Notes: generated by a model from the letters alone, not told the origin. Counted from the stretch's first letter, positions 18 to 50,260 are shown. The stretch: 64,000 nt of DNA from Candidatus Poribacteria bacterium (GCA_965242965.1 OZ251518.1:1664001-1728000), one strand, 5' to 3'. Program-made: numbers and translations.

Positions 18-554
18 GAGGGTTTTTCATAAATCGATGGATTCCGGGTAGGAGAGACCTCCTGGTCTCGATGGCTTCCGGTAGGAGAGACCTCCCGGTC
101 TCGATGCAATAGGGCGGCGCGCCTCCCGGGGCTGCGGCGGCAAAAAGCCCCCTTCATCGTAGGGCGAGGGCCTATCCCTCGCCATGCGTTTGGCTGGCAG
201 ACTGCATCACCCCTGTAGGTCAGGATCGCCAGATCCTGACCCGTTTGTGATCAGGCGATCACAAACTACAGAGAGGGGAGAACGAAAAAAAACGTCTCTT
301 GTTCACTTCAGGTCCTAAAGGACTTAAAACGCCACAGTTTGACGATGGAGCTCGCGGGGGACAGGCCCCCGCGCTACGGGAAAATCAAGCCCCGAGGTCT
401 CTCCTACGGGCAAGAAATCGAGACCGGGAGGTCTCTCCTACCGGGCGGGCGCGCCGCCCTATTGCATCGAGACCTGGTGGTCTCTCCTACGGAGAAGACA
501 TCAAGACCAGGAGGGCTCTCCTATCGGGAAGGCATTGATATATGAAACACCCTC
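18..554. mobile_element. MITE-like element copy 1 (14-bp TIRs, interior of GTAG-hairpin repeats)
   Basis: GAGGGTTTTTCATA at 18-31 and TATGAAACACCCTC at 541-554; flanks ACTTGACT / ACTTGACC (7/8 direct repeat). Confidence 0.8.
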
Positions 555-594
555 ACTTGACCCAACACGAGCCCGTTAGGCGAGGGTTTCAACT

Positions 595-1329
595 CTATCG
601 GCCCGGGACGGTTTTGATTCGCGCCCACGTGACAGCTAGTTTATCTTGCGGCGCAACATCGAACGGAATCGCGCCGATAGCATAGAGAATCGAACGGTGG
701 ATAAGCTCCCAACCGTCATCGGTTACCATGCTCCAGCCGGTTGAGTGGGGCCAGATATTAACGTGGCGTGCTTTCGTTGCGCCTTTCAAGGTTTTCGCGC
801 CTTCTTCGTAAACCGAGAGCGCGACGAAATCGTCCATATCCTCGCGCACAGCGAGGACTTCGATCTCGCCTTCAAAGCCGTTGCACGTCATCAGTTGCGC
901 TGCCGGTTTACTGACGGTAATATCACCCTTGAATCCCTCCGTTATCGGATGCTCGTCGTTGACAATGGTGATTTTGTCACCAGCATCAGAGTTGAAGGTG
1001 CCGTCCGGGGCAAATCCCATGTCATCGTAAGTCCAGGTCTCCGCGTTGACGACAGGGACATTGACATCTTTATACGCATCGAGGATATTCGCGCTAGAGG
1101 TGGATTCCGAAATAAACACGAGATCGATGCCGTTCAGTTTGACGGGATGCTTCTCCAGATGTTCGTGGGCATTGACGACGTAACCCCACTTTTCTAGGTA
1201 TTCTATCAGGAGCGCGTCCTTCGGATCTGGCGCGCCGGAGCCGACAAGCACCAGCGTTTCGCCCTCGGCTACTGCCCAGTGAACGGCGCAAAATAGCACC
1301 AGTAGTGGTAAAAGAAAATAGCGATACAT
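595..1329 (-). CDS. Secreted protein with C-terminal 'DVAPQDKLAVTWARIK' motif
   Basis: ORF 595..1383; likely start MYRYFLLP at 1329 after AAGGAGG RBS; signal-peptide-like N-terminus. Confidence 0.8.
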   Translation of the reverse strand: MYRYFLLPLLVLFCAVHWAVAEGETLVLVGSGAPDPKDALLIEYLEKWGYVVNAHEHLEKHPVKLNGIDLVFISESTSSANILDAYKDVNVPVVNAETWTYDDMGFAPDGTFNSDAGDKITIVNDEHPITEGFKGDITVSKPAAQLMTCNGFEGEIEVLAVREDMDDFVALSVYEEGAKTLKGATKARHVNIWPHSTGWSMVTDDGWELIHRSILYAIGAIPFDVAPQDKLAVTWARIKTVPGR

Positions 1330-1454
1330 CGAAGAATTTTCCTCCTTTTCGGTTAAAATACAGTGACGTGCGCGTTGTTCCAACCAACTGCACGTTCCCG
1401 AAACTTGAAAAATATTCTATAAAAGTTGACAAAAAATGTCAAGAGGAAAAAGAG

Positions 1455-2309
1455 GTGGAACAACCAATCCATGGATTAACTGTCCGCGGTGTTACAAAAG
1501 ATTTTCATCGAACGAAGCGGACAAATCAGGCGGCAAGCCCGCGTTTTTACCAACGGCTACATCAGATTTTTAAGCGGGAGAAAGAGACTATCCGCGCCGT
1601 TGACAACATCTCGCTTGAGGTTGGCATCGGCGAGATTTACGGTATTCTCGGGGCTAACGGCTCTGGAAAATCAACGCTGATTCGCTGTATCTCAACGTTA
1701 CTTCTGCCGGATGCAGGCGACATTCGCGTTTTCGGCGATGACGTTGTTAAGGAGAGCCTGAAGGTGAGACAGGTGATGAACCGCGTTTCCGTTGAGGCTT
1801 CTTTTTTCAAACGGCTGTCTTCTGCCGAAAACCTAATTTACGCCGCGCGCCTCTACGGCATCACTGCAGAGACCGCGGAGAAAAGAGCGCGCGAGATTTT
1901 AGAACGCCTCGGTTTCAATGCGAATCGGATGAACGAAGAGATGGAGAACCTGTCGCGCGGGATGCAGCAGAAAGTGGCGATTGCGCGTGCATTGCTTACT
2001 TCGCCCATGCTTCTGTTGCTTGATGAACCGACAACCGGGTTGGATCCGAAATCCAAACGCGATGTGCAGGCGTTTATTGAGGAAATCCGAAGTGAACGCA
2101 ACGCTGTCATCGTTCTGACAACGCACGATATGGCGGAGGCGGAACGACTGTGCGACAAAATCGCCATTATTGATAAGGGACGCTTTATCGCCGAAGGCAC
2201 TGTCAAGGAACTCATCGCTCAAGTGCCTTCGCAGAACGGCGCACCGGCGACGTTGGAAGAGGTCTTCATCGCGCTCACCGGCAAAGAAATCGGAGACGAG
2301 GAGGAATGA
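1455..2309 (+). CDS. ABC transporter ATP-binding protein (ABC-2/DrrA-like)
   Basis: Walker A GANGSGKS, signature LSRGMQQK, Walker B LLLLDEP; GTG start at 1455 is likely. Confidence 0.92.
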   Translation: MEQPIHGLTVRGVTKDFHRTKRTNQAASPRFYQRLHQIFKREKETIRAVDNISLEVGIGEIYGILGANGSGKSTLIRCISTLLLPDAGDIRVFGDDVVKESLKVRQVMNRVSVEASFFKRLSSAENLIYAARLYGITAETAEKRAREILERLGFNANRMNEEMENLSRGMQQKVAIARALLTSPMLLLLDEPTTGLDPKSKRDVQAFIEEIRSERNAVIVLTTHDMAEAERLCDKIAIIDKGRFIAEGTVKELIAQVPSQNGAPATLEEVFIALTGKEIGDEEE

Positions 2310-2313
2310 ACCG

Positions 2314-3120
2314 ATGCTGAATCTCGTCCGGGAAACCGTCGTTTCCTACGCCTTCATTGAACGCAATTTTAACCTCGTGAAGCGGTATCTGAGCTGGGAA
2401 ATCCTGTTTTTCAGTTACTCTATTGTGAACGCGCTGACTATCGGTTTAATCATGGTAGGACGCGGCACGAGTAAAGATGTGCTTTACCTCCTCATCGGCG
2501 CGCTTATCTGGGGATTCTTCTCCGTTATGATGCGCGAAGTCAGCGATGCAATCACGTGGGAACGATGGGAAGGCACGATAGAATACACCTTCATGGCACC
2601 CATCCACCGCATCACGCATCTTGTCGGTTCCTGCCTATTCGCAATCCTGTATGGGCTCTTGCGGACAGGGCTCATCTTAGCGATACTGCCGCTCTTCTTC
2701 GGTGAGCACATCGACCTAGGACGCGCGAATTGGCTCACGATGGGAGTGATAGTTGCTGTTTCCAGCCTCTCTTTCATTGGGATTGGGCTGATGGCGGCGA
2801 TTTTTCCGCTGCTATCACCGGAAAAGGGACAGGCAGCGACAGGGATTATCCCGTCCGTGCTGCTGTTAGTCTCCGGCATTTATTACGAGATTGAGGTGCT
2901 CCCGGAATGGCTGCAACCGTTTTCGTGGATGTCCCCGGCGACTTACACCCTCAAATCCATTCGTGCGGCGATTCTTGAAAACGCGTCGGTTGCGAGTCAG
3001 GCGGGCAATCTGTTGTTGCTGCTGATTATCGGGATAGTGCTGATTCCGGTCGGCTTTTGCGTCTTCCACCTCGGCGAGAAGTATGCCAAGCGCGTGGGTA
3101 GGTTGAAACGGAGTGGGTAG
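2314..3120 (+). CDS. ABC-2 type permease
   Basis: Several TM segments, ERWEGTIE motif, directly follows the ATPase; ATG at 2314 after GAGGAGG. Confidence 0.9.
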   Translation: MLNLVRETVVSYAFIERNFNLVKRYLSWEILFFSYSIVNALTIGLIMVGRGTSKDVLYLLIGALIWGFFSVMMREVSDAITWERWEGTIEYTFMAPIHRITHLVGSCLFAILYGLLRTGLILAILPLFFGEHIDLGRANWLTMGVIVAVSSLSFIGIGLMAAIFPLLSPEKGQAATGIIPSVLLLVSGIYYEIEVLPEWLQPFSWMSPATYTLKSIRAAILENASVASQAGNLLLLLIIGIVLIPVGFCVFHLGEKYAKRVGRLKRSG

Positions 3121-3168
3121 GTGAAAAAAAAGGGACGTTTCGTTTTCGGTTTTGGCTGCCGTTTCCCC

Positions 3169-3648
3169 GGTAGGAGAGACCTCCTGGTCTCGATGCGAGC
3201 GATGTCCCCGTAGGAGAGACCTCCTGGTCTCGATGCAATAGGGCGGCAGAAAGCCTCTATCATCGTAGGGCGAGGGCCCTCGGATGCCATACGCGCATCC
3301 GAGGGCCCTCGCCATCGCTCGCGCACTCCAACGCTCGCGGGGGACAGGCCCCCGCGCTACGCGAAAAAAACGGCACTTCATCGTAGGGCGAGGGCCTGTC
3401 CCTCGCCATGCATTTTGCTGGCAGACCTCCTCACCCCTGTAGGTCAGGATCGCCTGATCCTGACCCGTTTGTGATCAGGCGATCACAAACTACAGAATGA
3501 GTGTTGCTATAGACATGTAGGACCTAAAGGACCTAAAACGGCATCTTAACGATGGCAATCGCGGGGGACAGGCCCCCGCGCTACGGTAAAATCAAGACCC
3601 GAGGGCTCTCCTACGGTATTGCATCGAGACCAGGAGGGCTCTCCTACC
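3169..3648. repeat. Intergenic cluster of GTAG-hairpin (REP-like) repeats
   Basis: GTAGGAGAGACCTCCTGGTCTCGAT x2, GTAGGGCGAGGGCCTGTCCCTCGCC, GTAGGTCAGGATCGCCTGATCCTGAC and reverse copies ending CTAC. Confidence 0.9.
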
Positions 3649-3706
3649 GAACGCCCTATTAGGCACTATCGCCCGCTATCGTTGCCATAGCGGAAGAAAA
3701 AAATGA

Positions 3707-3735
3707 TTGACAACCGATTCATCATTTGCTAAACT
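3707..3735 (+). promoter_or_regulatory. Putative sigma70 promoter for the dapA-like/aroA operon
   Basis: TTGACA-17-TAAACT upstream of AGGAG RBS. Confidence 0.6.
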
Positions 3736-3771
3736 CTAAAGCACTTAGCCAAACCGACTCAGGAGAGACGA

Positions 3772-4671
3772 ATGAATATCCGCTTTGAAGGAATTTTTAC
3801 TCCCACGATAACACCACTCGATGCAAAAGAACGCATTGATGAACTCGGATTTACCAAGCAAATTAACCGCCTCATCGGCAACGGTGTTCACGGCATCTAT
3901 CTCTTAGGCACTTCCGGTGAATTTACCACGCTGACAAACGCGGAACGCGAACGTGCCATTGACATCGCCGTGAAGGTGGTTAACGGCCGCGTGCCGATTG
4001 TGAGCGGTGTCATGGACACCAGCACGCAGCGCGTCATCCAAAACATTGAGATTGCGCAAGAACTCGGTGTGGATGCAGTCGCCGCGACACCGGGTTACTA
4101 TTATCCCTCCACCGACGACGCAGACCTGATTGAATTTTACGAGGCCATCGCCGCCAGCACCGACTTGCCGGTGCTGATTTACAACATCCCGTCTACCGTC
4201 AAAACGGCGATTAAACCGCAGCTAGTCGCCGAACTCGCCGACCGGTGCGACAACATCATCGGCATGAAGGATAGTTCCGGAGACTGGACTAACTGCCTTA
4301 ACCTTCTGGCACTGCTTGGAGACAGAGACGATTTCTCGCTCCTCCTCGGTTCGCATACCGCTTTGGGGGCGGCACTGTTATTCGGTGCCGATGGCGGGGT
4401 CGTCTCCATATCAAACGTCGCGCCGAAGCAAGCCGTCGCGCTCTATAACGCCGGGAAGGCACGCGATATTGACGAAGTGCATCGATTGCAAAAATGGCTG
4501 CTCCGCCTCAGCAAAATCTACACCTACGGCCAAGGCGTGAGCGGGATGAAGGCGTGCTTGGAAATTCTCGGTGTCTGCCAAGCGCACACGACGAGTCCGC
4601 TGCTGCCGGTGAGCGATGTCGCCAAATCAGAAATTCGGGGGCTGCTCACGGAGTTGGGGATTTCCGAATGA
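3772..4671 (+). CDS. Dihydrodipicolinate synthase (DapA) family aldolase
   Basis: GTSGEF motif, IYNIP, GMKDSSG Schiff-base lysine. Confidence 0.9.
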   Translation: MNIRFEGIFTPTITPLDAKERIDELGFTKQINRLIGNGVHGIYLLGTSGEFTTLTNAERERAIDIAVKVVNGRVPIVSGVMDTSTQRVIQNIEIAQELGVDAVAATPGYYYPSTDDADLIEFYEAIAASTDLPVLIYNIPSTVKTAIKPQLVAELADRCDNIIGMKDSSGDWTNCLNLLALLGDRDDFSLLLGSHTALGAALLFGADGGVVSISNVAPKQAVALYNAGKARDIDEVHRLQKWLLRLSKIYTYGQGVSGMKACLEILGVCQAHTTSPLLPVSDVAKSEIRGLLTELGISE

Positions 4672-5939: not shown

Positions 5940-5976
5940 CCGGAGGATTTCTTAGTCAAAGCACATCCCCTTTTTC

Positions 5977-9645: not shown

Positions 9646-10264
9646 GAGGGTGTTTCATAAATCGCTCAACGTCGCGGTGACATGCCCCGCGCTACGATGA
9701 AAAAAAACGCCGCCCCTTTACGTAGGGCGAGGGCCTGTCCCTCGCCATGCTGCGATCGCGGGGGACAGGCCCCCGCGCTACGGTTAAAAACAGTCCCCTT
9801 CATCGTAGGGCTTGGGCCCTCGCATGCCACACGCGCATCCGAGCGGGTTCCCCTCGCCATCGTCCGCGCACTCCAACGATCGCGGGGGACAGGCCCCCGC
9901 ACTACGATGAAAAAACGGTTCTTAGGTCCGTAGGACCTTAATGTCTATAGCACGTGAGGATGCAAAGAACGCTAAGGTCTGTAAGACCTTAGTGTGTTTT
10001 GACGCACTGCGTGGTTTTTATTAAGGACCTAAAGGACCTTGACGTGAGCCGGCACGTTTTTCTATAGACATTAAGGACCTAAAGGACCTAAAACGCCGCT
10101 GCTTGCCGATGGCCAACGCGGGGAACAGGCGGGATAATCGAGACCGGGAGGTCTCTCCTACCGGGAAGAAATCGAGACCAGGAGGTCTCGCCTACGGGGA
10201 CATCACAGGCATTGAGACCAGGAGGTCTCTCCTACGGGTGTGCATCGAAATATGAAACACTCTC
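9646..10264. mobile_element. MITE-like element copy 2
   Basis: GAGGGTGTTTCATA at 9646, TATGAAACACTCTC at 10251-10264; flanks ATTTAACT / AATTAATT (6/8). Confidence 0.75.
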
Positions 10265-12490: not shown

Positions 12491-12710
12491 GAGGGTGTTT
12501 CATATATCGCTCAGCGTCGCGGTGAAACCCGCTCGGATGCGCGTGTGGCATCCGAGGGCCCCGCGCTGCGGTGAAAAAAACGCCGCCCGTTCACGTAGGG
12601 CGAGGGCCTGTCCCTCGCCATGTGTTCGGTTGTCAGAGCACATCACCCCTGTAGAGCAGGAGCACCTGCTCCTGATCCGTTCGGGAGCGGGTGCTCCCGA
12701 ACTACAGAGA
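12491..12710. mobile_element. Truncated MITE-like element (left TIR only)
   Basis: GAGGGTGTTTCATA at 12491 followed by the usual hairpin order; no right TIR before the RM gene end at 12733. Confidence 0.6.
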
Positions 12711-12732
12711 TGGGCCCTGCGATGCTATTTTT

Positions 12733-15912: not shown

Positions 15913-16685
15913 TAGAGCCCTATTCTAACATAGTTCGGCACTAAAGTCCAATAGTTATCGCCATCGCCATTTTGCAAGCGTTGCGCGCCGAGATGCGCGA
16001 CTGTCGCCCCGCGAGGCGCATTGAAGATCGCATCGGCGAAGCGGATTTCTTCACCGAGTGCTGTCTGCACCGCGTCCGCGTATCTCTCAAGTCCATCGCC
16101 GACGAAGGTGCATTGCAGTAGGCGTGCCCTCCTGTTCTCGCCTTCCGGTAGGAGAGACCTCCCGGTCTCGTTTCTTTCGGGTAGGAGAGACCTCCCGGTC
16201 TCGACTCCCCCCGGTAGGAGAGACCTCCTGGTCTCGATTTCCGCAAGAACTGCCTCAATCGGTAAACACCAATCATCGGTGAGGCGTTGCCATTCGTCAC
16301 CACCGCGGAAGATAGCACCGTAACTCTCATTCCGCCGCGCGTCAAGGATAGGACAGATGAGCCCTTCAGTCCAGCGCAGATTGTAGGCGATTGCCTCCAG
16401 CGTTGAAACGCCGATGATGGGTTTGTCAAGCGCGTAACAGAGGGATTTGATTGTTGCAATGCCGATGCGGATGCCGGTGAATGAACCGGGGCCGATGCCG
16501 ACAGCGCCTCCATCTAATTCTTCAGCCGTGATGTCGCCCCATTTCAGGACGGTGTCAATCGCCGGCATGAGTCGGGAAGAGTGCGCCTTCACGATATTGA
16601 GCGTATGTTCGGCGACGAGGGATTCGCCATCAATTAAGGCGACGCTTCCGATGGGGGTTGATGTGTCAATACCTAAGATTTTCAT
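15909..16685 (-). CDS. tsaB: tRNA threonylcarbamoyladenosine biosynthesis protein TsaB, with in-frame repeat insertion
   Basis: ILGIDTS, HS..LMP, GPGSFTGIRIG, DARR, LVPNYVR. Confidence 0.93.
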   Translation of the reverse strand: MKILGIDTSTPIGSVALIDGESLVAEHTLNIVKAHSSRLMPAIDTVLKWGDITAEELDGGAVGIGPGSFTGIRIGIATIKSLCYALDKPIIGVSTLEAIAYNLRWTEGLICPILDARRNESYGAIFRGGDEWQRLTDDWCLPIEAVLAEIETRRSLLPGGVETGRSLLPERNETGRSLLPEGENRRARLLQCTFVGDGLERYADAVQTALGEEIRFADAIFNAPRGATVAHLGAQRLQNGDGDNYWTLVPNYVRIGLY

Positions 16686-19181: not shown

Positions 19182-19254
<73 letters not shown>

Positions 19255-19327: not shown

Positions 19328-19560
19328 GTAGGGCGAGGGCCCTCGGATGCCACACGCGCATCCGAGCGGTTTTCCCTCGCCATGCGTTTTGGTGTCAGCC
19401 CGCATCCCCCCTGTAAGTCAGGATCGCCTGATCCTGACCCGTTCGGGAGCGGGCGCTCCCGAACTACAGAGGTGGGCCCGATGCCTACCGGTAGGAGAGA
19501 CCTCCTGGTCTCGATTAAGCGGCCACGTGTGAGAGCGCGCGGTTTGAAACCGCGTCTACG
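19328..19560. repeat. REP-like cluster downstream of the tRNA
   Basis: GTAG hairpins plus GCGCGGTTTGAAACCGCG palindrome. Confidence 0.85.
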
Positions 19561-19585
19561 GTGTTTTTTCTGCGTCCATTTTAAT

Positions 19586-19880
19586 GAGGGTGTTTCATAA
19601 ATCGCCCAACGTCGCGGGGGACAGGCCCCCGCGCTACGATGAAAAAACGCCTCCCCTTTACGTAGGGCGAGGGCCTGTCCCTCGCCATGCGTTTTGGAGT
19701 CAGACTGCATCACCCCCGTAGGTCAGGATCGCCTGATCCTGACCCGTTCGGGTGCAGGCGCTCCCGAACTACAGAGGTGGGCCCGATGCCTTACGGTAGG
19801 AGGGACATCCTTGTCCCGATACGGAAAATCAAGACCAGGAGGTCTCTCCTACCGAACACATTGAAATATGAAACATCCTC
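19586..19880. mobile_element. MITE-like element copy 3
   Basis: TIRs at 19586 and 19867-19880; flanks ATTTTAAT / GTTTTAAT (7/8). Confidence 0.8.
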
Positions 19881-21658: not shown

Positions 21659-22962
21659 AAAACACGCTTCTTCAGAAAATTGAAACCCGCACCGCTCACG
21701 CCGGTGTCATCGGACTCGGCTATGTCGGATTGCCGCTCACGGTGGCCATCGCGAGTGCCGGCTTCCGCGTCACGGGCATTGACATCTGCGAGGAAAAAGT
21801 CGCGCGGCTGCAACGCGGCACCTCTGATGTCCCTGGTGTCCCCGAAGAACGCCTCGCCGATTTCATCCGTTCTGGACGCATTCAGGTGACAACGGATTAT
21901 GCGGTGCTTCGGGAACTAGATACCGTCAATATCTGTGTGCCAACGCCGCTGAACGAGAACCGAACGCCGGACATGCAGTTCATCAACGCCGCCGTTCATC
22001 AGATTGCGCAGTCCTTGCATCGCGAGCAGCTCATCCTGCTAGAGAGCACCACTTACCCCGGCACCACCGAAGAAATCGTGTTACCGACGCTTGGGACGAA
22101 AGCGCAAGTGGGACGCGATTTTTACCTTGCCTACTCACCCGAACGCATCGAGCCGGGAAACAGCACCTACTTCATGGAGAACACCCCTAAGATTATCGGT
22201 GGTATTACGCCGCAATGCACTAAAATCGCGACGGCGTTCTATGCGCAGTTTATTCATAAAACGCACACCGTCTCCTCACCCCGCGCCGCCGAGATGGTAA
22301 AATTGTTAGAGAATACCTTCCGGAGTGTCAACATCGGGCTCATCAACGAAATGGCACTCATCTGCGATAAAATGGGGTTGGATGTGTGGGAAATTGTTGA
22401 TGCCGCCGCAACGAAACCGTTCGGGTTTATGCCGTTTTATCCTGGGCCCGGCTCTGGCGGACATTGCATTCCCGTAGACGCGCAGTATCTCTCTTGGAAG
22501 GCGCGCGCCTATCATCATCACGCACGTTTTATTGAACTCGCCAGTGACATTAACGGTGCCATGCCGAAATATGTGCTGGATAAAATCGTCCACGCGCTCA
22601 ACCTCCAACGGAAACCGCTCAACGGCTCAAAACTCCTCATCTTGGGAATTGCTTACAAAAAAGAGGTAGGCGACATCCGAGAATCCCCTGCAATTGAAGT
22701 TATTCGGTTAATTCTTGACAAAAAAGCGGATTTCGTGTATCATGATCCTTACGTATCCAATTTTGTGTTGGATGCGCGCGAAACCTATCATTCTCAACCG
22801 CTAACCCCCGCGCTTGTAGCGAATGCAGACGGTGTGGTAATTCTCACAGACCACGGTGGCATCGATTACGAGTGCGTGGTGCGCCACGCGCAAGTCGTGG
22901 TGGATACGCGCAACGCGACGCGCGGCATCCAACACGGCCGCGAGAAAATTATCAAAATTTAA
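21655..22962 (+). CDS. Nucleotide-sugar dehydrogenase (UDP-N-acetylhexosamine 6-dehydrogenase-like)
   Basis: GLGYVGLP, CVPTP, ESTTYPGTT, KLLENTFR, GGHCIPVD. Confidence 0.9.
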   Translation: MKNTLLQKIETRTAHAGVIGLGYVGLPLTVAIASAGFRVTGIDICEEKVARLQRGTSDVPGVPEERLADFIRSGRIQVTTDYAVLRELDTVNICVPTPLNENRTPDMQFINAAVHQIAQSLHREQLILLESTTYPGTTEEIVLPTLGTKAQVGRDFYLAYSPERIEPGNSTYFMENTPKIIGGITPQCTKIATAFYAQFIHKTHTVSSPRAAEMVKLLENTFRSVNIGLINEMALICDKMGLDVWEIVDAAATKPFGFMPFYPGPGSGGHCIPVDAQYLSWKARAYHHHARFIELASDINGAMPKYVLDKIVHALNLQRKPLNGSKLLILGIAYKKEVGDIRESPAIEVIRLILDKKADFVYHDPYVSNFVLDARETYHSQPLTPALVANADGVVILTDHGGIDYECVVRHAQVVVDTRNATRGIQHGREKIIKI

Positions 22963-22988
22963 CGCCTCCCCTTTGGAGGAAACGAACA

Positions 22989-24542
22989 ATGTCAAAGTTG
23001 AACCCGAAATTGCAAATACGGCGGGACCAGCTCGCATGGCTCCTCGGCATGCTTTTGGACGAACGCGCCGTTTTCCAACTGGTAACCCTCTCCGGACTCG
23101 TGCCAGATCTGGACAAACTCTGCTCATTATCGAAGCGAAAATTGTTGGACAACTTAACCGATGCCTTCTTTGTGGAGGCCACCGTTGAAGAAACAACCTG
23201 CGAATTCTTTGCGGAACAAGCCGAGGCGGCGATAGCCCGCGTCGGATACATGGAGGTAGCCGAAATCGAGATGTTTTTTGATACCTCCGAGACCCTCATC
23301 GAGGCAGGGGAATTTGCCGAAGTCGTCTGGGCCCTGTTAACCGACGAACGGACAGCTGTCGCCACCCACGGCTATAGCCTCCTGCATGCCTCACACGCCG
23401 AAGAGTCCGCGCGTTCCGCAGACCGGGCGGCACTCGAAAATCAACTCGCCGCCGAAGAAATCGAAAAAATCCGAGTCGAATACGCCTACAACCTCGAAAT
23501 CGCGCAACAGGAGTTTGACAACCAGACCCGGGAGATGGAGCTCCTCCGACGTAAACGGGCTGAACTGCAGGGGCAGTATACGTCACTTGAGAAGAAGCAC
23601 AAGCAACAAGAGCAACACGTCGCGTTCCTGCTTGCCGAAAACAAGGCGCTGCGGGACAAAGACGAAAGTTATGAAGAAGAACGGAAGCGGTTGAAGATGC
23701 TTGAGCAGGAGAACAACATCTTCCGCGAACGCGAAGAGCAGTATGCCGCCATGAACGAGGAACTGCAGCAGCTCAGGCACGAAAACGAGAGCCTCATCGC
23801 CGCGCACGCTAACACGGCCGTCCGACTCAAGGAATACGAACGGATTAAGGCGGTAAAAGAAACCTTCGGCGTGGATTTGACGTTAGTAGAAGAAGCCGTT
23901 TACAAAGGCAATCAGGGACTGGAGGAACTGCAAACCAGCCTTGACGAGCATTTCAAAGCGTTGCAAAGAAATCAGGAGACCACGCGCAGCACGCTAACAC
24001 GGATTCGCGACACGCTCACCTATTTGGATACGCCGCCGGACCCTGAGGGCAAGCACGCACTCACACCCCAACAGCCGCGCGTCGGCGTGTTCGTGGATGT
24101 CCAGAATATGTTCTATGCCGCGAAGGACCGGTTTGCTCGACGCGTTGACTATATCAAGCTACTCGACCTGATAGTCGGGCCCCGGCACCTAGAGGCGGCG
24201 TATGCCTACGTGGTGCAGATACCGGAGATTAACCAGTCCAGTTTCCTGTCGCTGCTGGAGCATAACGGATACACAATCAAGAGCAAGGATTTGCGACTGC
24301 GCGGCGACGGTTCAGCGAAAGGCGATTGGGATGTCGGCATCGCCGTTGATGTCGTCTCCATGCTCGGCACACTGGACGTTGTCATCCTCGCGAGTGGCGA
24401 TGGGGATTTTTGCCCGCTCGCGGAACTCATCAAACAGCAGGACAAACGGGTGGAGGTGGTGGCGTTTGAACACAATACCTCCATGGATTTACAACACATC
24501 GCAGACCAGTTCTTCCCCATCGGAAACGAACTGTTGATTTAA
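22989..24542 (+). CDS. NYN (LabA-like PIN) domain protein with a long coiled coil
   Basis: C-terminal VFVDVQN, KGDWDVGIAVD, LASGDGDF.PL; central E/Q/K-rich heptads; GGAGG RBS. Confidence 0.88.
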   Translation: MSKLNPKLQIRRDQLAWLLGMLLDERAVFQLVTLSGLVPDLDKLCSLSKRKLLDNLTDAFFVEATVEETTCEFFAEQAEAAIARVGYMEVAEIEMFFDTSETLIEAGEFAEVVWALLTDERTAVATHGYSLLHASHAEESARSADRAALENQLAAEEIEKIRVEYAYNLEIAQQEFDNQTREMELLRRKRAELQGQYTSLEKKHKQQEQHVAFLLAENKALRDKDESYEEERKRLKMLEQENNIFREREEQYAAMNEELQQLRHENESLIAAHANTAVRLKEYERIKAVKETFGVDLTLVEEAVYKGNQGLEELQTSLDEHFKALQRNQETTRSTLTRIRDTLTYLDTPPDPEGKHALTPQQPRVGVFVDVQNMFYAAKDRFARRVDYIKLLDLIVGPRHLEAAYAYVVQIPEINQSSFLSLLEHNGYTIKSKDLRLRGDGSAKGDWDVGIAVDVVSMLGTLDVVILASGDGDFCPLAELIKQQDKRVEVVAFEHNTSMDLQHIADQFFPIGNELLI

Positions 24543-24544
24543 TT

Positions 24545-24840
24545 GAGGGTGTTTCATAAATCGCTCAGCGTCGCGGTGATATGCCCCGCGCTACGGTAAA
24601 AAAAACGCTGCCCCTTCACGTAGGGCGAGGGCCCTCGCATGCCACACGCGCATGCGAGTGGGTTTCCCTCGCCATGCGTTTGGCTGGCAGAGCGCATCAC
24701 CCCTGTAGTTCAGGATCGCCTGATCCTGACCCGTTCGGGAGCAGGCGCTCCCGAACTACAGAAGTGGGCCCGATGCATTCCGGTATTCGCCCGCCCTCCA
24801 AGGCGGGATAGATTCCGAAACGGGGTTATGAAACACCCGC
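24545..24840. mobile_element. MITE-like element copy 4
   Basis: TIRs at 24545 and 24827-24840; perfect 8-bp flanking repeat ATTTAATT. Confidence 0.88.
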
Positions 24841-24997
24841 ATTTAATTGAGGTGGCGGTAGGCACGCCTGCCGCCACCGTAACTTCAATCGCAAAAGATT
24901 TACGCAGAAGCGATTGCCGTAGGCGCGGTTTCAAACCGCACCTATCCGGGCGAAAACATTGAATGGCGTAAGTCTTGTAGCAAAGGATAATTTATTG

Positions 24998-25972: not shown

Positions 25973-27482
25973 TGGCATAATTTCGGCGTTGTTTATCTCG
26001 CTACCCGGATGCTTGCTCATTTTTCTCGTGAGCGTGGGTATTGCCTTCGCACAATGGCGCACCGCGCCCCATCGAGACCAGGAGGTCTCGCCTACCGGAA
26101 GGTTGCATCGAGACCGGGAGGTCTCGCCTACGGGGACATCAGTCGTCTTCGCACAAGGGGCACAATGGCGCGCCGAGCCCACTGAAAACCTGCCGCTTTG
26201 CACCGCGAAGAACGAACAACACTTCCCAGTCCTCATCACCGATGGCGCGGACGGCGCAATCGTCGCTTGGAGTGATGCACGCAGCGCGAACCGTGACATC
26301 TACGCACAGCGAGTGAACACAAACGGTGAGATGCTCTGGAACCCTGATGGCATCCCTGTTTGCGATACCCCCGCGGCGCAAAGTTGGCCCCTGATCGTCG
26401 AAGATGGAGACGATGGGGCGATTATCGTGTGGGGAGATACGCGCTACGGCAACCAAGACATCTACGCGCAACGCATTGACGCAAACGGCGCGAAGATATG
26501 GCAACCCGAAGGCATCTCTGTCTGCACCGAACCGTCCTTACAAGACGGCCTCCAAGCCATCGCCGATGGCGAAGGCGGCGTGATTGTCACATGGGAGGAC
26601 TGGCGAAACGGCAATCAAGATGTCTATGCACAGAAAATTGACGGTGCGGGGAAACCTGTCTGGCAGGAAAACGGCGTGCCTGCCTACAAAGGTGCTGGAG
26701 ACCAGTACGACCCGGTTTTAATCGCCGATGGCGAAGGCGGCGCGATTTTCGCATGGTGGGACATCAGCACGCCGGATTGGAATATCTTCGCGCAACGTCT
26801 GTCTGCAAATGGCACATCGATGTGGGGAGAAGCACTTCCTATTTGCACAGCGATGGGGAATCAGGGAGGCCCGGCTGTCGTTAGCGATGAAAACGGCGGT
26901 GCGTTCTTCACCTGGTCAGATTATCGCAACGATCCGAATTTCTACACGAGTGCGCAGTTGTATGCGCAGCATGTCAACGCCGATGGCATTGCACTTTGGG
27001 AGCAGGATGGGATTCCTATCAGTGCGTTGGCTGTCAATCAGCAACAGCCTGCCTGTATTCCTGATGGCGCGGGCGGCTTCATCGTCGTTTGGTGGGATGA
27101 GCGCGATATCTTCGCCGACATCTATGCGCAACGGATGAACGCCGCTGGAGAAGTGCTGTGGGCAAAAGCGGGAGTCCCTGTTTGCACCGGTGCCGGTGTC
27201 CAGCGTGAGCCGCAGCTTGTCTCTGCTGGTGATGGCGGCGCGATTGCCTACTGGCTTGATTACCGCGAAGACTTCGGCGATACAACGGAGGATGCCATTT
27301 ATGCGCAACGCCTCAGTCCGAACGGCGAGGCGTTGTGGGAGAAAGATGGCGTGCCAGTCTGCACCGCGAAGAGAGAGCAAATCTCACCGCAGGCGGTTGC
27401 AGCTGGTGTGGGGAAGGCCATCATCGTTTGGAGTGATGCGCGTGGTGAGGATTATGATATTTATGTGCATCGGGTGCCGTGA
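25932..27482 (+). CDS. Secreted 8-repeat (probable beta-propeller) protein; start uncertain
   Basis: Eight ~55-aa repeats Q..P....DG.GGA...W.D.R....DIYAQR....G...W...G.PVC; signal-like segment ending AFA. Confidence 0.8.
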   Translation: MAIFLTRNQFSSDSGIISALFISLPGCLLIFLVSVGIAFAQWRTAPHRDQEVSPTGRLHRDREVSPTGTSVVFAQGAQWRAEPTENLPLCTAKNEQHFPVLITDGADGAIVAWSDARSANRDIYAQRVNTNGEMLWNPDGIPVCDTPAAQSWPLIVEDGDDGAIIVWGDTRYGNQDIYAQRIDANGAKIWQPEGISVCTEPSLQDGLQAIADGEGGVIVTWEDWRNGNQDVYAQKIDGAGKPVWQENGVPAYKGAGDQYDPVLIADGEGGAIFAWWDISTPDWNIFAQRLSANGTSMWGEALPICTAMGNQGGPAVVSDENGGAFFTWSDYRNDPNFYTSAQLYAQHVNADGIALWEQDGIPISALAVNQQQPACIPDGAGGFIVVWWDERDIFADIYAQRMNAAGEVLWAKAGVPVCTGAGVQREPQLVSAGDGGAIAYWLDYREDFGDTTEDAIYAQRLSPNGEALWEKDGVPVCTAKREQISPQAVAAGVGKAIIVWSDARGEDYDIYVHRVP

Positions 27483-30342: not shown

Positions 30343-30660
30343 GGGGGTGTTTCATATATCAATGCCTTCCCCGTAGGAGAGCCCTCCCGGTCTCGATTTC
30401 TCCGCCCGGTCTCGATGCAAGCGATGTCCCCGTAAGAGAGACTTGTGAAAAAATGTCACAGTACCGTAGCGCGGGGGCCCTCGGATGCCACACGCGCCTC
30501 CGAGCGGGTTTCCTCCGCGAATTTCCGGTAGACCGAAGCACGGCGAGGGACAGGCCCTCGCCCTACGCAGAAGGGGGCGTTTTTCGACCAAGAAACCCTC
30601 CCGTTACCGTAGCGCGGGGGCCTGTCCCCCGCGACGTTGAGCGATTTATGAAACACCCTC
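30343..30660. mobile_element. MITE-like element copy 5 (reverse orientation, flanks do not match)
   Basis: GGGGGTGTTTCATA at 30343, TATGAAACACCCTC at 30647-30660; flanks ATTAACCT vs AGATAAAT. Confidence 0.7.
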
Positions 30661-33399: not shown

Positions 33400-33679
33400 G
33401 AGGGTGTTTCCTAAATCGCTCAACGTCGCGGGGGACAGGCCCCCGCGCTACGGTGAAAAAAACGCCTCTCCTTCACGTAGGGCGAGGGCCCTCGGATGCC
33501 ACACGCGCATCCGAGCGGGTTCCCCTCGCCATGCGTTTGGCTGGCAGACTGCATCACCTTTGTAGGTCAGGATCGCCTGATCCTGACCCGTTCGGGAGCA
33601 GGTGCTCCCGAACTACAGAGGCGGGCATCGCTCGTATTGAGACCGGGAGGGCGCGCCAACGGAGTTATGAAATACCCTC
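33400..33679. mobile_element. MITE-like element copy 6
   Basis: TIRs at 33400 and 33666-33679; flanks AATAAAGC / AATAAAGT (7/8). Confidence 0.82.
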
Positions 33680-38561: not shown

Positions 38562-38796
38562 GAGGGTGTTTCATATATCAATACCTTACGATAAAAAACG
38601 CTATCCCTTACCGTAGGGCGAGGGCCTGTCCCTCGCCAGCGTCCGCGCGCCAGGCCTGTAAGTCAAGATCGCCTAATCTTGACCCGTTTGTGATCAGGCG
38701 ATCACAAACTACAGACAGGGAAACACACATCAGGACGATGGACAACGCGGGGACAGACCCCCGCCCTACGGGAAAATCGAGATATGAAACACCCTC
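38562..38796. mobile_element. MITE-like element copy 7, inserted in the accD promoter
   Basis: Perfect TIRs at 38562 and 38783-38796; perfect 9-bp flanking repeat AATTATACT. Confidence 0.88.
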
Positions 38797-38797
38797 A

Positions 38798-44383: not shown

Positions 44384-44481
44384 ATCTTTCTCCTTTGCAA
44401 ACATTTCTGTTAACATTGCATTATACCACAAATTTAAGGCGATTGCAAATTTTGACAGACTCCCCGCTCAATGTCTTCCCT

Positions 44482-44724
44482 GTAGGAGGGACATCCTTGT
44501 CCCGATTACGGTATTGCATCGAGACCGGGAGGTCTCCCCTACGCGTCTGGGTAGGAGGGACATCCTTGTCCCGATTACGGTATTGCATCGAGACCGGGAG
44601 GTCTCCCCTACGCGTCTGGGTAGGAGGGACATCCTTGTCCCGATTTGGCTATTGCATCGAGACCGGGAGGTCTCTCCTACGGTGGCATCGCTTGTATTGA
44701 GACACCGATTTATGAAACACCCTC
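44482..44724. repeat. Three tandem 69-bp REP doublets followed by a lone right TIR
   Basis: GTAGGAGGGACATCCTTGTCCCGAT...ATCGAGACCGGGAGGTCTC.CCTAC at 44482, 44551, 44620; TATGAAACACCCTC at 44711-44724. Confidence 0.88.
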
Positions 44725-44856
44725 AGGGTAATCTTAAGGATACCACACCTTGTCTCGAAATGCAAATCTTTTTTCGAGCTCGGCGCAGTGCATAGAACAG
44801 CACATCTTCGCGCAAAGGCTCGCCTACCGGGGCGAACGGCATCGCGCTGATCTGAC

Positions 44857-45570: not shown

Positions 45571-45652
45571 ATCTAAAATTCCTCCTTTTCAAAATGATAA
45601 CATATCCAATAAGACGATGTCAAATGCAATTGAAAATTGAAACCTGTCTGTT

Positions 45653-46098: not shown

Positions 46099-46139
46099 GG
46101 TAAAAAAAAACGGCCTCCCTTCTCCAAAAAAAATAAAAT

Positions 46140-46168
46140 TTGACATTTTCCCACATTTATGATACAAT
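46140..46168 (+). promoter_or_regulatory. Putative sigma70 promoter
   Basis: TTGACA-17-TACAAT. Confidence 0.6.
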
Positions 46169-46278
46169 TAAAACATAATGCTGAATAGGCTGCGCGCGAC
46201 ACAACCGCAAACCCAAACCGCACGTTACCCAAAAACCGGGCATCGCGCAACGATAACGCATAGGAAACAACGACTCTG

Positions 46279-47769
46279 ATGATACGCAACATCCTCCGAA
46301 AATTCACCCGCGAAGACGGCATCTTCCTCGCATGCTTCATAGCCGTTATCGGCGGCATCATCCTCTTCAAAGCCTACAAACAGGCAGACGGATTTATCAC
46401 CGTTGCACATGACCATCCTGAACGGTTTGTCAACGGCGAAAATGTCCTCATCAAACGCGTCCACGAAGAACATTGGGACATATTCTATGACTTTGGCCCC
46501 TCCTGCCCTGCCAGCCTCAAAACCGAAGAAAACTACCGGGTCCTCCGCGAAAACCTTGAAAGGGGAATCAGGACTTGGCTAGCACCACTACGGGAAATCA
46601 CCGACAGACCTATCGTCGATAAATTTGTCTTCTACACGGAGAATGAGGAGAAGGAGGAGGGGAATGAGAATGTTAGACATGAGGTTCATGTATTGTTCAA
46701 GTGTGAAGGGGGGCGATCAGTCGCTAGTCGGGAAAGTAGATCAATAAGCATGAAAACAACTAATCTAGACATAGTGGAGGCACTATTTACACCCTCTCTT
46801 CGCTATAGAATAAGCACCCTTCTACACGAGTTGGGTCATGCCTTTGATCTGGCTGACACCTATGTTGGGAATCCAAGTGTTTCTCCTCCCAACACTGGAA
46901 GTTACAGCAGCACAATCGGTCGTCAACCTCGGTCGACTATGTCAAGTGGAGTGACGTGCGGAGATCAAGGTCCGGATCAGTGGACTCTTTGTCTTGATGA
47001 CATACGCGCAATCCAATGGCTCTACCGTTACCACTGGGAAGGACTCGACCCAACCAATTGCCCCCCTGAATTTGAATACGAGGAACTAACTTGGGAGGGG
47101 AAGACAGTTGGAGGATGTGTCCTTAAGCAACCGCTTATCGTAGAACTTCGGCAAGGACATCTATGGCGCGCGAAGCAGATACTCTTTAGCGACAAAAACC
47201 TCAAAATCAACGATCAGGATGAGCATGGGCTAACCGCACTTCACTATATTGCAAGGTTGTATCCTGAACTCCACTGGGCAGATATTCGGGGTGGTATTTT
47301 AAATCAAATCCTCAAACACCCCGGTATCGACATCAACGTTACCAACAAGTGGCGTAATACTCCATTGCATACGGCTGCGTGGGTAGGAAACGCGGGTATG
47401 GTTTCTGATTTTCTGTTTATTCATACCGAACTTGTCCGAGAAGGAATTATGCTTAATGCTCAAAACGATTATGGCATGACTGCGTTACACTACGCGGCTA
47501 AGTCTGGACGAAATGATTGTGCTATGATTCTGTTGATGCGCACAGACATCAAACCCAACATCAAGGATAACCGTGGCAACACCCCTCTCCACGAAGCCGC
47601 CAAGAACGGACGAACCGAGATAGTCACAATGTTGCTCGCGCATCAGGACATCAACCCCAATCTCCGCAATGCAGCCGGTTTCACACCGTTGCAGCTAGCC
47701 ATGCAGGGAGGCGCAGTATCAGACGCAGACAGTGATGCCAGTTTCCAAGCGGATTACCCAGAATTCTGA
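46279..47769 (+). CDS. Membrane-anchored zinc metalloprotease + ankyrin-repeat protein
   Basis: N-terminal TM; HELGHAFDL.D zincin motif; ankyrin repeats (GLTALH, NTPLH.AA, GMTALHYAA, GNTPLHEAA, GFTPL). Confidence 0.88.
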   Translation: MIRNILRKFTREDGIFLACFIAVIGGIILFKAYKQADGFITVAHDHPERFVNGENVLIKRVHEEHWDIFYDFGPSCPASLKTEENYRVLRENLERGIRTWLAPLREITDRPIVDKFVFYTENEEKEEGNENVRHEVHVLFKCEGGRSVASRESRSISMKTTNLDIVEALFTPSLRYRISTLLHELGHAFDLADTYVGNPSVSPPNTGSYSSTIGRQPRSTMSSGVTCGDQGPDQWTLCLDDIRAIQWLYRYHWEGLDPTNCPPEFEYEELTWEGKTVGGCVLKQPLIVELRQGHLWRAKQILFSDKNLKINDQDEHGLTALHYIARLYPELHWADIRGGILNQILKHPGIDINVTNKWRNTPLHTAAWVGNAGMVSDFLFIHTELVREGIMLNAQNDYGMTALHYAAKSGRNDCAMILLMRTDIKPNIKDNRGNTPLHEAAKNGRTEIVTMLLAHQDINPNLRNAAGFTPLQLAMQGGAVSDADSDASFQADYPEF

Positions 47770-48051
47770 TCTTCGTTATCGGAGGAAAATCGGCAGCACT
47801 TGAGTTCGCGTCTCTCCCCTGCAGCGTTGCAGCAGGCACACGTTGAGATCGCCGCATTGCTCCGCGCGCATCCCGGAATTATCCTCCCCGATGCCTCGGA
47901 TGTCAACGGTGATGGTGTCGTCAACATCTTGGATCTCGTGCGGGTCTCCAATGCATTCGGTCAGCGCGGACAGATACCAGAAGATGTCAACGGCGATGGT
48001 GTCGTGAACGTTCAGGATTTAGTGTGGGTATCCGGTGCGTTTGGGCAGTAG
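47770..48051 (+). pseudogene. In-frame continuation after TGA encoding a type I dockerin-like duplicated repeat
   Basis: DVNGDGVVNILDLVRV / DVNGDGVVNVQDLVWV; same frame as the upstream gene, separated by a single TGA. Confidence 0.7.
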
Positions 48052-48385
48052 GGCCCAACGCTCGCGGGGCCCAGAGACCGTAGTTCGGGAGCGCCTGCTC
48101 CCGAACGGGTCAAGAGCAGGCGCTCTTGACCTACAGAGGGGGAGGCCCCGGGTTACCGTAGGGCGAGGGCCTGTCCCTCGCCATGCCCGGACCCTATAAA
48201 AGACCGTAGTTCGGGAGCACCCGCTCCCGAACGGGTCAAGATCAGGCGATCTTGACCTACAGAAGGGGGGCAACGCTCGCGGGGGACAGGCCCCCGCGCT
48301 ACGGTGTAAGCGGCATTTCTCGCAGCAATCGCGGGGGACAGGCCCCCGCGCTACGGGGCATCGAGACGCAGGAGGGCTCTCCTAC
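48048..48385. repeat. Intergenic REP-like cluster
   Basis: GTAGTTCGGGAGC..GCTCCCGAA doublets x2 and other hairpins. Confidence 0.88.
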
Positions 48386-48483
48386 CTGGCTCCGGAACAG
48401 AAATCAATTGTCCTTGCATAAAAACGCGAAAGATGGTAATCTATTTGTGTAGACGCAATTCCGCAGTCAATCAGGAGAAACAT

Positions 48484-49863
48484 GTGAAAATCACAATTAT
48501 CGGGACAGGCTACGTCGGTTTGACAACGGCGGTTGTCCTCGCCTACCTGAACCACCAGGTCGCGGCGGTTGATAAAGATACCCACAAACTTAAACTGTTA
48601 CACGAAGGGAAAAGCCCCATCCATGAGCCCGGCATCCAAAGGCTTCTTGACGAGGTAGGACAGACTATCCGTTTCACGCCGAGCGTCGCCGATGTTGTTC
48701 CGGCGGCGGAGCTCATCTTAATTGCTGTCGGAACACCGCCGAAAAAGAACGGGGAAGCAGATACGCGGCACGTCGAACAAGCGGCGAGAGAAGTCGCGCA
48801 GGTCTGCCATCCACATCGGCATTATACGCTTGTAGTCAAATCGACGGTGCCTATCGGCACGAATCGGCGCGTCGCTGAAGTTGTTGAGGAGGTGTTTGCT
48901 GCGCGCGGGATTCAGGGAAACGTTGCTGTCGCGTCGAACCCGGAGTTTTTGCAGGAAGGTTTGGCGTTGCAAGGCGCGTTCTACCCAGACCGGATTGTCG
49001 TCGGCGCGCACTGCGATGATGCTATTGATGCGTTACGTCGCCTCTATCAGCCGGTGCTTGAACAGACGTTCGACCCGCCGAGCATGTTCCCGCGCCCCGA
49101 GGCATATCATCTTCCGCCGATGATGACGACAGACCCGAGCAGCGCGGAGATGCTCAAATACGCCGCGAACACGTTCCTCGCGCTGAAGATCAGTTTTATC
49201 AACGAAATCGCTGGACTTTGCGAGAAGGTCGGCGCAGATGTGACAGAAGTCGCACGCGGTATAGGACTTGACGCGCGCATCGGGCATCGGTTCCTGCAGG
49301 CGGGCCTCGGTTGGGGCGGCAGTTGCTACCCGAAGGATACGGCGGCGTTGTTAGGTGTCGCGGCACAATCAGCCTATGAAATGCCGATTACGGAAGCCGC
49401 CCGCGCCGTGAATTTTCGGCAACGCGAAGTCATCGTTGAAAAGTTGCGCGATGCGTTTAAAACGTTCGGTGGCGAGGGGAACGCGATGCAGGGGAAAACC
49501 GTTGGGATTCTTGGGCTCGCCTTTAAGCCGAACACCGATGACGTTCGTTCGGCACCGGCGTTAGATATTATCCGCTGTCTCGTTGCGGAGGGAGTAAGCG
49601 TTCGCGCGCACGATCCGATTGCGATGCAGAATGCAGAGAGTGCTCTGGAGGGAACGACGGTGGATTTTCAGGAAGATGTGTATCGTCTCGCCTCTGGGGC
49701 AGATGCGCTGGTGCTGGTCACCGAATGGGATGCTTACCACCGGCTGGAGTTGCGCAGGCTGGCGAAGCAGATGCGGACTCCGATTTTGATTGATGGCCGC
49801 AATGTGTATTCGCCGCAAGAGGCGCGCGATGCAGGATTTCATTATGTCGGCGTGGGCCGGTAG
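48484..49863 (+). CDS. ugd: UDP-glucose 6-dehydrogenase
   Basis: GTGYVGL, AVGTP, KSTVP, SNPEFL, KYAAN, GGSCYPKD; GTG start after AGGAG. Confidence 0.92.
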   Translation: MKITIIGTGYVGLTTAVVLAYLNHQVAAVDKDTHKLKLLHEGKSPIHEPGIQRLLDEVGQTIRFTPSVADVVPAAELILIAVGTPPKKNGEADTRHVEQAAREVAQVCHPHRHYTLVVKSTVPIGTNRRVAEVVEEVFAARGIQGNVAVASNPEFLQEGLALQGAFYPDRIVVGAHCDDAIDALRRLYQPVLEQTFDPPSMFPRPEAYHLPPMMTTDPSSAEMLKYAANTFLALKISFINEIAGLCEKVGADVTEVARGIGLDARIGHRFLQAGLGWGGSCYPKDTAALLGVAAQSAYEMPITEAARAVNFRQREVIVEKLRDAFKTFGGEGNAMQGKTVGILGLAFKPNTDDVRSAPALDIIRCLVAEGVSVRAHDPIAMQNAESALEGTTVDFQEDVYRLASGADALVLVTEWDAYHRLELRRLAKQMRTPILIDGRNVYSPQEARDAGFHYVGVGR

Positions 49864-49962
49864 ATGGGACATCCTTGTCCCGATGTGGATAGGCCATTGA
49901 GATCGGGAGAGATAGAAAATTGAGACCAGGAGGTCTCTCCTACCGGGCCCGAACAGTTAACA

Positions 49963-50260
49963 CAGGGTGTTTCATAAATCGCCTAACGTCGCGGGGGACA
50001 GGCCCCCGCGCTACGACGAAAAAAACGCTGCCCCTTCACGTAGGGCGAGGGCCCTCGGATGCCACACGCGCATCCGAGCGGGTTTCCCTCGCCATGCGGT
50101 TGGCTAGCAAACTGCATAACCCTTGTAGGTCAGGATCGCCTGATCCTGACCCGTTCGGGATCAGGCGATCCCGAACTACAGAGGTGGGCCCAATGCCATC
50201 CGGTATTCGCCCTCCCTCCAAGGCTGGATAAATACCGAAACAGAGTTATGAAACACCCTC
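49963..50260. mobile_element. MITE-like element copy 8
   Basis: CAGGGTGTTTCATA at 49963, TATGAAACACCCTC at 50247-50260; perfect 8-bp flanking repeat AGTTAACA. Confidence 0.88.

Follow-up and report, generated by a model that had tools for sequence, protein, structure and literature searches.

Two classes of miniature mobile DNA in bacteria are usually handled apart. The first comprises the MITEs (miniature transposable elements with inverted repeats) derived from insertion sequences (ISs), such as Correia/NEMIS, RUP, and Nezha (the part of PMC3733652 that deals with them) and MITEAba12. They are short, non-coding, and present in high copy number; they carry the terminal inverted repeats (TIRs) of an autonomous IS, leave target-site duplications (TSDs) of fixed length, and need a transposase supplied in trans. 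The second is formed by repetitive extragenic palindromes (REPs) and the REP-associated tyrosine transposases (RAYTs), as set out in sections of Nunvar 2010 (PMC2817692) and of Bertels and Rainey: GC-rich palindromes headed by GTAG, in thousands of copies, with inverted doublets around a short spacer (REPINs, REP doublets forming hairpins) and a single RAYT amid REP arrays. In the stretch of a Candidatus Poribacteria genome described here, 64,000 nucleotides long and called the window (G000:C1:1664001-1728000, where G000 is the genome), the two classes are nested and co-amplified: a family of short elements with TIRs and TSDs, repeated throughout the genome, carries REPs inside.

What distinguishes these elements from IS-derived MITEs is an interior of REP hairpins and doublets from a RAYT-linked system rather than the deletion remnant of an IS, and their number: about 300 copies with two ends and about 400 with one, in a genome from which the IS is gone. 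Compared with known REP/REPIN–RAYT systems, the host is a member of the Poribacteria rather than the Gammaproteobacteria, one RAYT is common to five or more stem types, and about 15% of the hairpins sit in DDE-type TIR shells with TSDs. BIMEs (interspersed mosaic elements of bacteria), in the portions of PMC3184786 and PMC2817692 devoted to them, are likewise REP mosaics with alternating orientation, variable unit number, and intergenic polymorphism. BIMEs have no TIRs and no target duplication, whereas the mosaic here is framed by transposon ends. The minisatellite MITE of Porphyromonas gingivalis (PMC4596501) and DTC84 of a clam (PMC3879986), on the partial accounts used here, are also TIR-bounded, non-autonomous, and variable in their repeat core, but their cores are element-specific tandem repeats where ours are genome-wide, independently mobile REP units. 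No description of a REP-built MITE, or of REPs in Poribacteria, was found in the open-access literature, in a check at the level of listings and words that took in neither supplements nor ISfinder. A 2024 review of prokaryotic MITEs leaves RAYT, BIME, and IS982 unmentioned and has REP in journal names only. The result is a documented bacterial MITE with a REP/REPIN body, empty sites, and an identified parent IS.

The family very probably consists of non-autonomous DDE transposons that have the ends of a 1107-bp IS and interiors taken from independent, RAYT-linked REPs, and that are now orphaned in G000. MITEs make up most of the family, which also includes at least two cassettes that carry genes. 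The G000 assembly amounts to 5.70 Mb in 2 contigs (54% G+C, 46% A+T; 94.66% complete). Counting as a TIR match the 14-mer GAGGGTGTTTCATA with up to 2 mismatches, it holds 1026 ends, 530 of them exact. Pairing adjacent + and − ends at most 3 kb apart yields 314 pairs, with a median length of 386 bp, and leaves 397 ends unpaired; the 298 pairs shorter than 1 kb make up the two-ended set. Exact TSDs of 8 bp flank 64 of these and exact TSDs of 9 bp another 26, where random re-pairing of left and right flanks gives 0.37 and 0.025. With one mismatch allowed, the counts rise to 100 and 43 (control 4.1 and 0.6). The exact TSDs are 82% A+T, against 46% for the genome, and their consensus is palindrome-like, A(.86) N T(.81) T(.84) A(.86) A(.73) N T(.78). 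Inward partners with 3–4 mismatches exist for 127 of the 397 unpaired ends, which is chance level, as a wrong-side control gives 122. A self-BLAST of G000 for multi-copy repeats of IS size returned 31 merged intervals of 589–6425 bp (34 matches of at least 600 bp).

Sister genomes of sponge symbionts, in other genera of the family, harbor the partner IS. Among 41 relatives scanned, all Candidatus Poribacteria (other scans took in 112 genomes of the family), G022, a genome of the same family as G000, has 7 + 6 TIR matches about 1.1 kb apart. One copy (L001 102..1208) is 1107 bp long, with perfect 17-bp TIRs (GAGGGTGTTTCATAAAT), a TSD (AGATAATT), and one 353-aa open reading frame (ORF). In our MITEs, too, conservation of the TIR goes beyond 14 bp, to 17 bp. 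The ORF scores 39.1 bits against PF13612 (DDE_Tnp_1_3; cut-off 27) and 26.7 against PF01609 (DDE_Tnp_1; cut-off 23), so that by a Pfam DDE domain over its gathering score it is a DDE transposase of the IS4/IS5-like superfamily. NCBI records name the protein hypothetical. Like members of the IS982 family, the IS is about 1.1 kb long and has a single DDE ORF matching DDE_Tnp_1_3; IS982 (NF033520) is also its best NCBIfam match, but at 54.9 bits it falls far under the cut-off of 130 and so is not filed as a member. We call it IS982-like but unclassified. The IS is common in Poribacteria, with 79 loci retrieved, and has a few more distant relatives in Chloroflexota. It is intact in other genera of the family, its single transposase 332–353 aa long. 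Exact TSDs flank 14 of 29 full-length copies from the Poribacteria loci (12 of 8 bp, 2 of 9 bp) and are of the A-TTAA-T type. As MITE and IS agree in TIR, TSD lengths, and target, we take the IS to be the matching autonomous partner. In another genus, short TIR pairs (L118–L120) hold no REPs and derive from the IS by plain internal deletion.

G000 itself keeps only debris of this IS: seven left-end remnants of about 130 bp at 70–75% identity. With the IS transposase as query, G000 returned fragments only (best E 1.2e-5 over 52 aa); a profile search gave 0 matches to PF13612 and none over the cut-off to PF01609, and no transposase ORF was found within the longer TSD-flanked TIR pairs of G000. 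A preliminary description of the window, made from its sequence, had suggested looking for a transposase gene bounded by the same TIR. There is one, in G022 and other Poribacteria; in G000 it is not intact. The family is orphaned in the G000 assembly, which no longer encodes an intact transposase. That same description had read the TIR-plus-TSD shell as the footprint of DDE transposition and had asked whether flank matches across the genome would exceed expectation for AT-rich DNA. They do, and the shell is supported as a genuine DDE-type non-autonomous transposon by the TSD statistics, by the empty sites described below, and by an IS with the same TIR, TSD, and target. What is usually asked of a MITE is all present: TIRs at both ends, TSDs, small size without a transposase, a matching autonomous IS, and empty sites.

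In the window, the TIR is matched 18 times; 100 dinucleotide-preserving shuffles averaged 0.36, and none reached 18. The matches, at most one mismatch at every paired end, form eight two-ended elements and two one-ended copies, listed here with "canonical" referring to a consensus set out further on and "A-type" to one of its two ends.

18..554, no strand assigned: two-ended element, 537 bp, flanks 7/8 (ACTTGACT / ACTTGACC)
9646..10264, + strand: two-ended element, 619 bp, A-type end on the left, flanks 6/8, REPs inside
12491..12717, + strand: one-ended copy, A-type TIR and canonical interior up to the fourth REP
19586..19880, + strand: two-ended element, 295 bp, canonical left part and variant right end, flanks 7/8
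24545..24840, + strand: canonical element, 296 bp, exact TSD ATTTAATT (8/8)
30343..30660, − strand: two-ended element, 318 bp, A-type end on the right, no TSD match
33400..33679, + strand: canonical element, 280 bp, flanks 7/8 (AATAAAGC / AATAAAGT)
38562..38796, no strand assigned: two-ended element, 235 bp, exact 9-bp TSD AATTATACT (9/9)
44476..44724, − strand: one-ended copy, TIR (solo end 44711) after three tandem REP doublets of about 61 bp
49963..50260, + strand: canonical element, 298 bp, exact TSD AGTTAACA (8/8)

The coordinates of the eight elements and of the solo ends at 12491 (+) and 44711 (−), the range of lengths (235 to 619 bp), and the tally of flank matches are all as the preliminary description gave them. 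It had also called the interiors different assortments of GTAG hairpins. GTAG-headed hairpins are indeed there, but the assortments are not all different: elements 19586, 24545, 33400, and 49963 share one canonical architecture. Element 18..554 is filled with arrays of GTAGGAGAGACC-type REPs together with GGCGAGGG-, GTCAGGA-, and TTTGTGA-type hairpins. The copy at 12491..12717 is a truncated canonical element, without the far ~70 bp and the second TIR, and that at 44476..44724, with doublets that run GTAGGAGGGACA... / ...GGTCTCCCCTAC, also has no second TIR. Searched at gathering thresholds, Rfam finds nothing in the window but a tRNA, and neither the hairpins nor the MITE match a curated family; the tRNA gene (19182-19254, RF00005, 63.8 bits) lies 330 bp upstream of element 19586. 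The TAA stop of an ORF at 22872..24542 falls within the left TSD copy (24537-24544) of element 24545, so that the duplication preserves the stop.

Empty target sites were read in syntenic stretches of G001 and G002, two relatives of the same genus as G000, and in a 400-kb sample of G002. The clearest is that of element 24545. Both relatives have a single ATTTAATC where G000 has ATTTAATT-element-ATTTAATT, and metagenome contigs from two different studies bridge the site without the element (X5 record 16, about 97% identical; X1 record 1, about 98%). Both flanks of 24 G000 elements could be matched in the G002 sample, and three of these have clean single-copy targets there: window element 24545 and elements 2581050 (ACTTAACA) and 5508247 (AGTTATTT). 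The site of element 1736429 is approximately clean, and the intergenic DNA at the others is too diverged to read. In the window, G002 also has no element at 33400..33679 and only about 33 bp in place of 30343..30660, and five window elements are not on the syntenic G001 contig. The single-copy targets that the preliminary description said one should find in related genomes therefore exist, in G001, in G002, and in contigs of X5 and X1. Contigs of X8 and X10 stop at the edges of element 24545 and are mute as to presence or absence. Contigs from all four runs, which are sponge or related metagenomes, pile up at window positions 24542-24943 and 26016-26149. Repeats such as these fragment short-read assemblies, as the X8 and X10 contigs illustrate by breaking off at element edges.

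The amplification belongs to one lineage, as TIR counts in 112 genomes show. The TIR occurs in 72 of them, with 277 + 295 matches in G000 and 24 + 30 in the runner-up; in loci, the about 700 of G000 are at least 10 times the number in any of 111 related genomes. Here, then, is a lineage-specific transposon burst, orphaned in the G000 assembly.

How did REPs come to be inside? Aligned end to end, 57 copies of 227–304 bp yield a consensus of 266 bp in which four REPs occupy fixed places. It opens with the A-type end, a reversed CGCGGGGG REP, an A-rich spacer, and a GGCGAGGG REP, and continues with a GTCAGGA REP, a reversed TTCGGGA REP, and the C-type end. Exact TSDs at different sites flank 20 of the 57 copies, and it follows that the four REPs travelled with the element. 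Among all end-type combinations (A–C 80, A–B2 31, A–B 9, and others), exact TSDs occur in 28 of the 80 A–C pairs and in 0 of 17 homotypic pairs; because exact TSDs were confined to heterotypic pairs in this comparison, a true element apparently has a single A-type end, the end facing it being variable. A 198-bp copy in G001 (L121) shares the ends and the second REP pair; what it lacks is precisely the CGCGGGGG/GGCGAGGG doublet. Of the G000 elements, 188 have an A-type end, and the commonest continuations past it begin the first REP of that doublet. Both observations fit the nesting of a REP doublet in a proto-MITE ahead of the burst.

The interiors probably did not stay as they were. Two sites are occupied in both G000 and G001, with elements of 482 versus 864 bp and 455 versus 265 bp; their interiors and subterminal types differ, and one has lost a TIR and flank in G000. 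This evidence supports the internal remodelling that the preliminary description had proposed. In A-end copies, homology to the consensus breaks off preferentially just past REP edges, at consensus positions 100–104 (n=48), 185–194 (n=34), and 45–64 (n=46). At two orthologous sites (G000:C1:3012236-3012760 versus L004 306-1210, and L004 3100-3410), the flanking direct repeats are 15–20 bp long, not 8–9, and one G000 TIR has its outer 11 bp replaced by a copy of the opposite flank. Most elements have no full-length partner, that is, no other element aligning in one BLAST segment over at least 92% of both (219 of 298, and 67 of the 90 with exact TSDs).

Such diversity might suggest that REPs landed in each MITE only after it had inserted and that the shell never carried any. 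The unique architectures in 67 of 90 exact-TSD elements would suit that account, as would the G001 copy without one doublet and the differing interiors at orthologous sites. We nevertheless judge it improbable: it does not explain why 57 copies, scattered over different sites and in 20 cases flanked by distinct exact TSDs, have their four REPs at matching positions, or why the commonest continuations start with one and the same REP.

The REPs form a large population of their own. Hairpins consisting of GTAG and a perfect stem of at least 7 bp number 6151 in G000, where control heads give 27–235, save for TAGG (1405), which overlaps GTAGG. With about 1100 hairpins per Mb, Poribacteria join the hosts of very dense GTAG-REP/RAYT systems. 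Among the stems, CGCGGGG (1750), GGCGAGG (1519), TTCGGGA (492), CGCGAGG (392), TTTGTGA (259), and GTCAGGA (245) predominate. Inverted CGCGGGGG/GGCGAGGG doublets, which are REPIN-like, number 1122 with a modal spacer of 25 nt, and the GTCAGGA/TTCGGGA pair is also inverted. The one RAYT gene of G000 (C1:3147526-3147930; NF047646, 120.5 bits against a cut-off of 80) has GTAGTTCGGGAGC-type REP arrays on both sides. Three marks of a REP/REPIN–RAYT system are in evidence: high-copy palindromes headed by GTAG, a RAYT flanked by REPs, and inverted doublets with a short spacer. Calling the interior hairpins REP-like and searching the genome for a RAYT were both well founded.

The preliminary description went a step further, to a two-tier system in which the shell spreads REP arrays that are then remodelled. 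The anatomy of a shell with REPs holds up, and so does the remodelling; the shell as spreader does not. In its strongest form, that model would make the DDE shell the main vehicle of REP arrays and the REPs outside it the residue of decayed elements, and it has its attractions. Two-ended elements, which cover 2.1% of the genome, contain 945 of the 6151 hairpins (about 15%), and 1941 hairpins have a TIR match no more than 300 bp away; shells do decay (397 one-ended copies); and G000 combines about 5 times the REP density of G002 with a TIR count 10 or more times as high as in any relative. Yet two-ended elements leave out 5206 hairpins, and of the 104 in the window the eight elements contain 23. 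All but 119 of the 1122 doublets, 1003 in number, have no TIR within 60 nt, and upstream of them stands CGATCG rather than the AACGTCG found subterminally in the MITE. BLAST with one canonical element tells the same story, with about 2200 copies of its first REP module and only 150–260 of its ends. G002 has 1 TIR match in either whole-genome scan, yet 97 GTAG hairpins in its 400-kb sample, where a comparable stretch of G000 has 514. The types are partly the same, CGCGGGG and GGCGAGG among them, and the RAYT of G002 is flanked by a REP type other than that beside the G000 RAYT. RAYT-family genes are widespread in relatives with few or no TIRs (matches in 31 of 41 at E ≤ 1e-5, 22 of them over the cut-off). 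Given how few hairpins lie in elements, and that REPs are present in G002 with next to no TIRs, the shell is a minor vehicle, not the engine, of REP spread, and the stronger model is improbable. REPs make up a population of their own, older and larger, and the MITE interior was assembled from it.

Movement of the elements by a tyrosine (HUH/Y1) enzyme of the RAYT or TIRYT kind is very improbable. True, the RAYT is the only related transposase intact in G000, Di Nocera et al. 2013 describe RAYT-like genes with long flanking TIRs, and part of PMC3733652 mentions moderately abundant TIR families and some RAYT genes flanked by TIRs unrelated to GTAG repeats. But IS200/IS605-type enzymes make no 8/9-bp target duplications (according to part of PMC2817692), a DDE IS that agrees in TSD lengths and target is bounded by the very same 17-bp TIR, and the G000 RAYT is flanked by REPs, not by the MITE TIR.

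The history we favor for the DDE family would run as follows. The IS transposase would have moved the elements in trans into AT-rich A-N-T-T-A-A-N-T targets, duplicating 8 or 9 bp. Their interior owes nothing to the IS, being made of the GTAG-headed REPs and REP doublets of G000, a population of more than 6000. A master of about 266 bp with four REPs formed before the burst and was then copied whole; other subfamilies have the A-type end too and differ at the opposite one. After insertion, copies would have changed at REP edges as doublets were gained or lost, stretches were duplicated in tandem, and sequence was exchanged from copy to copy; deletion would also have occurred and left one-ended copies. 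G000 no longer encodes the transposase, and the family is an orphan there.

Several observations weigh against this reading or parts of it. Adjacent pairs without any flank match number 144 of 298, and 397 ends are unpaired; many pairs may for that reason be neighboring fragments, decayed or not single insertions at all. The gap between L121 and the canonical element could be a deletion rather than the insertion of a REP doublet in the canonical line, and the 219 architecture singletons are an overcount, owing to the 92% one-segment criterion. No transposase able to move the elements is present in the G000 assembly, nor did the IS transposase query find one in G001 or G002; mobilization in trans is inferred from the identity of TIR, TSD, and target. 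The RAYT is physically linked to one REP type (TTCGGGAGC) only and not to the CGCGGGGG and GGCGAGGG types; the two commonest REP types are tied to it by the GTAG head alone. Then there is the matter of age. Canonical copies have a mean pairwise identity of 0.863 and a maximum of 0.96, with 0 of 1596 pairs reaching 97%, and that 86% mean, with the loss of the transposase, suggests an old burst. Site 24545, however, is empty in lineages 97–98% identical to the window, and the syntenic G001 contig lacks five window elements. Masters that had already diverged, fast change in hairpins, precise loss, or a transposase on an unbinned replicon are possible ways out of this tension.

The same ends also frame genes. 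An element of 2902 bp (G000:C1:54311-57212; L122 1501-4402), with an exact 8-bp TSD (ATTTAAGT), carries the gene of a protein of 588 aa that has a dockerin domain as well as ankyrin repeats. Another, of 3920 bp (G000:C1:188873-192792; L123 1501-5420; exact 8-bp TSD AATAAATT), encodes a 1023-aa Type ISP-like methyltransferase/specificity protein. A Pfam search of these two large ORFs found no transposase. Across long TIR combinations of 1–15 kb, exact TSDs occur in 3 of 723 against 1.1 expected, which is not significant alone; we accept both elements because of their empty sites, not because of TSD statistics. Clean empty sites exist in G001 for both and in G002 also for the 2902-bp element. 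The methyltransferase gene has many copies, 65–81% identical, in G001 and G002.

Mobile insertion cassettes (MICs), such as MIC231 of Bacillus cereus, have IS-type TIRs around passenger genes, encode no transposase, and depend on one acting in trans, a description that suits the 2902-bp and 3920-bp elements. These two differ from MICs in their company: ends of this kind enclose REP arrays in hundreds of copies, and genes in few. Ankyrin-repeat and restriction-modification-type genes in shells with shared ends offer a testable mechanism of gene movement in sponge symbionts.

It is tempting to see the two systems as coupled, and we offer the idea tentatively, as a possibility with considerably less than an even chance of being right. 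RAYT-dependent doublets would have nested in a DDE-dependent MITE and hitch-hiked on its burst, the REPs boosting the MITE in turn; RAYT/REP cutting and recombination at GTAG edges would diversify the MITE and yield one-ended copies; and the shell would have moved host-interaction and defense genes. If true, this would be a route for spreading eukaryote-like proteins within sponge symbionts.

Other repeats and mobile elements share this ground. A repeat of about 188 bp is nested in window element 9646..10264, at about 9912-10099, and occurs partly also in 18-554. It has AGGTCC-N3-GGACCT hairpins and inverted ends (…AATGTCTATAGC … CTATAGACATT…), and BLAST finds 286 near-full-length copies across the genome, of which 66 lie between paired TIRs. 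This repeat may be another small mobile element that nests in some of the MITEs. A second Y1 match in G000 is a decayed remnant with two TGA stops, in an IS200/IS605-type element (G000:C1:3124157-3125627; L013 267..1737) whose 408-aa TnpB-like ORF is intact. A hairpin of about 31 nt (CTCGGATGCC…GCATCCGAG…) sits in the loop of both CGCGGGGG- and GGCGAGGG-type REPs, at window positions 24630-24670, 33490-33530, and 49990-50090 and in about 860 places genome-wide; it looks like a loop insertion common to two REP families. From one congeneric species to the next, REP families are replaced quickly. Where G000 has MITEs, a joined region of G001 (L096, G001:C137) has tandem GTAG REP arrays at ~16030-16420 and 19330-19800, made of a different REP (GTAGGCGCGGTTT…AACCGCG) with a period of about 70 bp.

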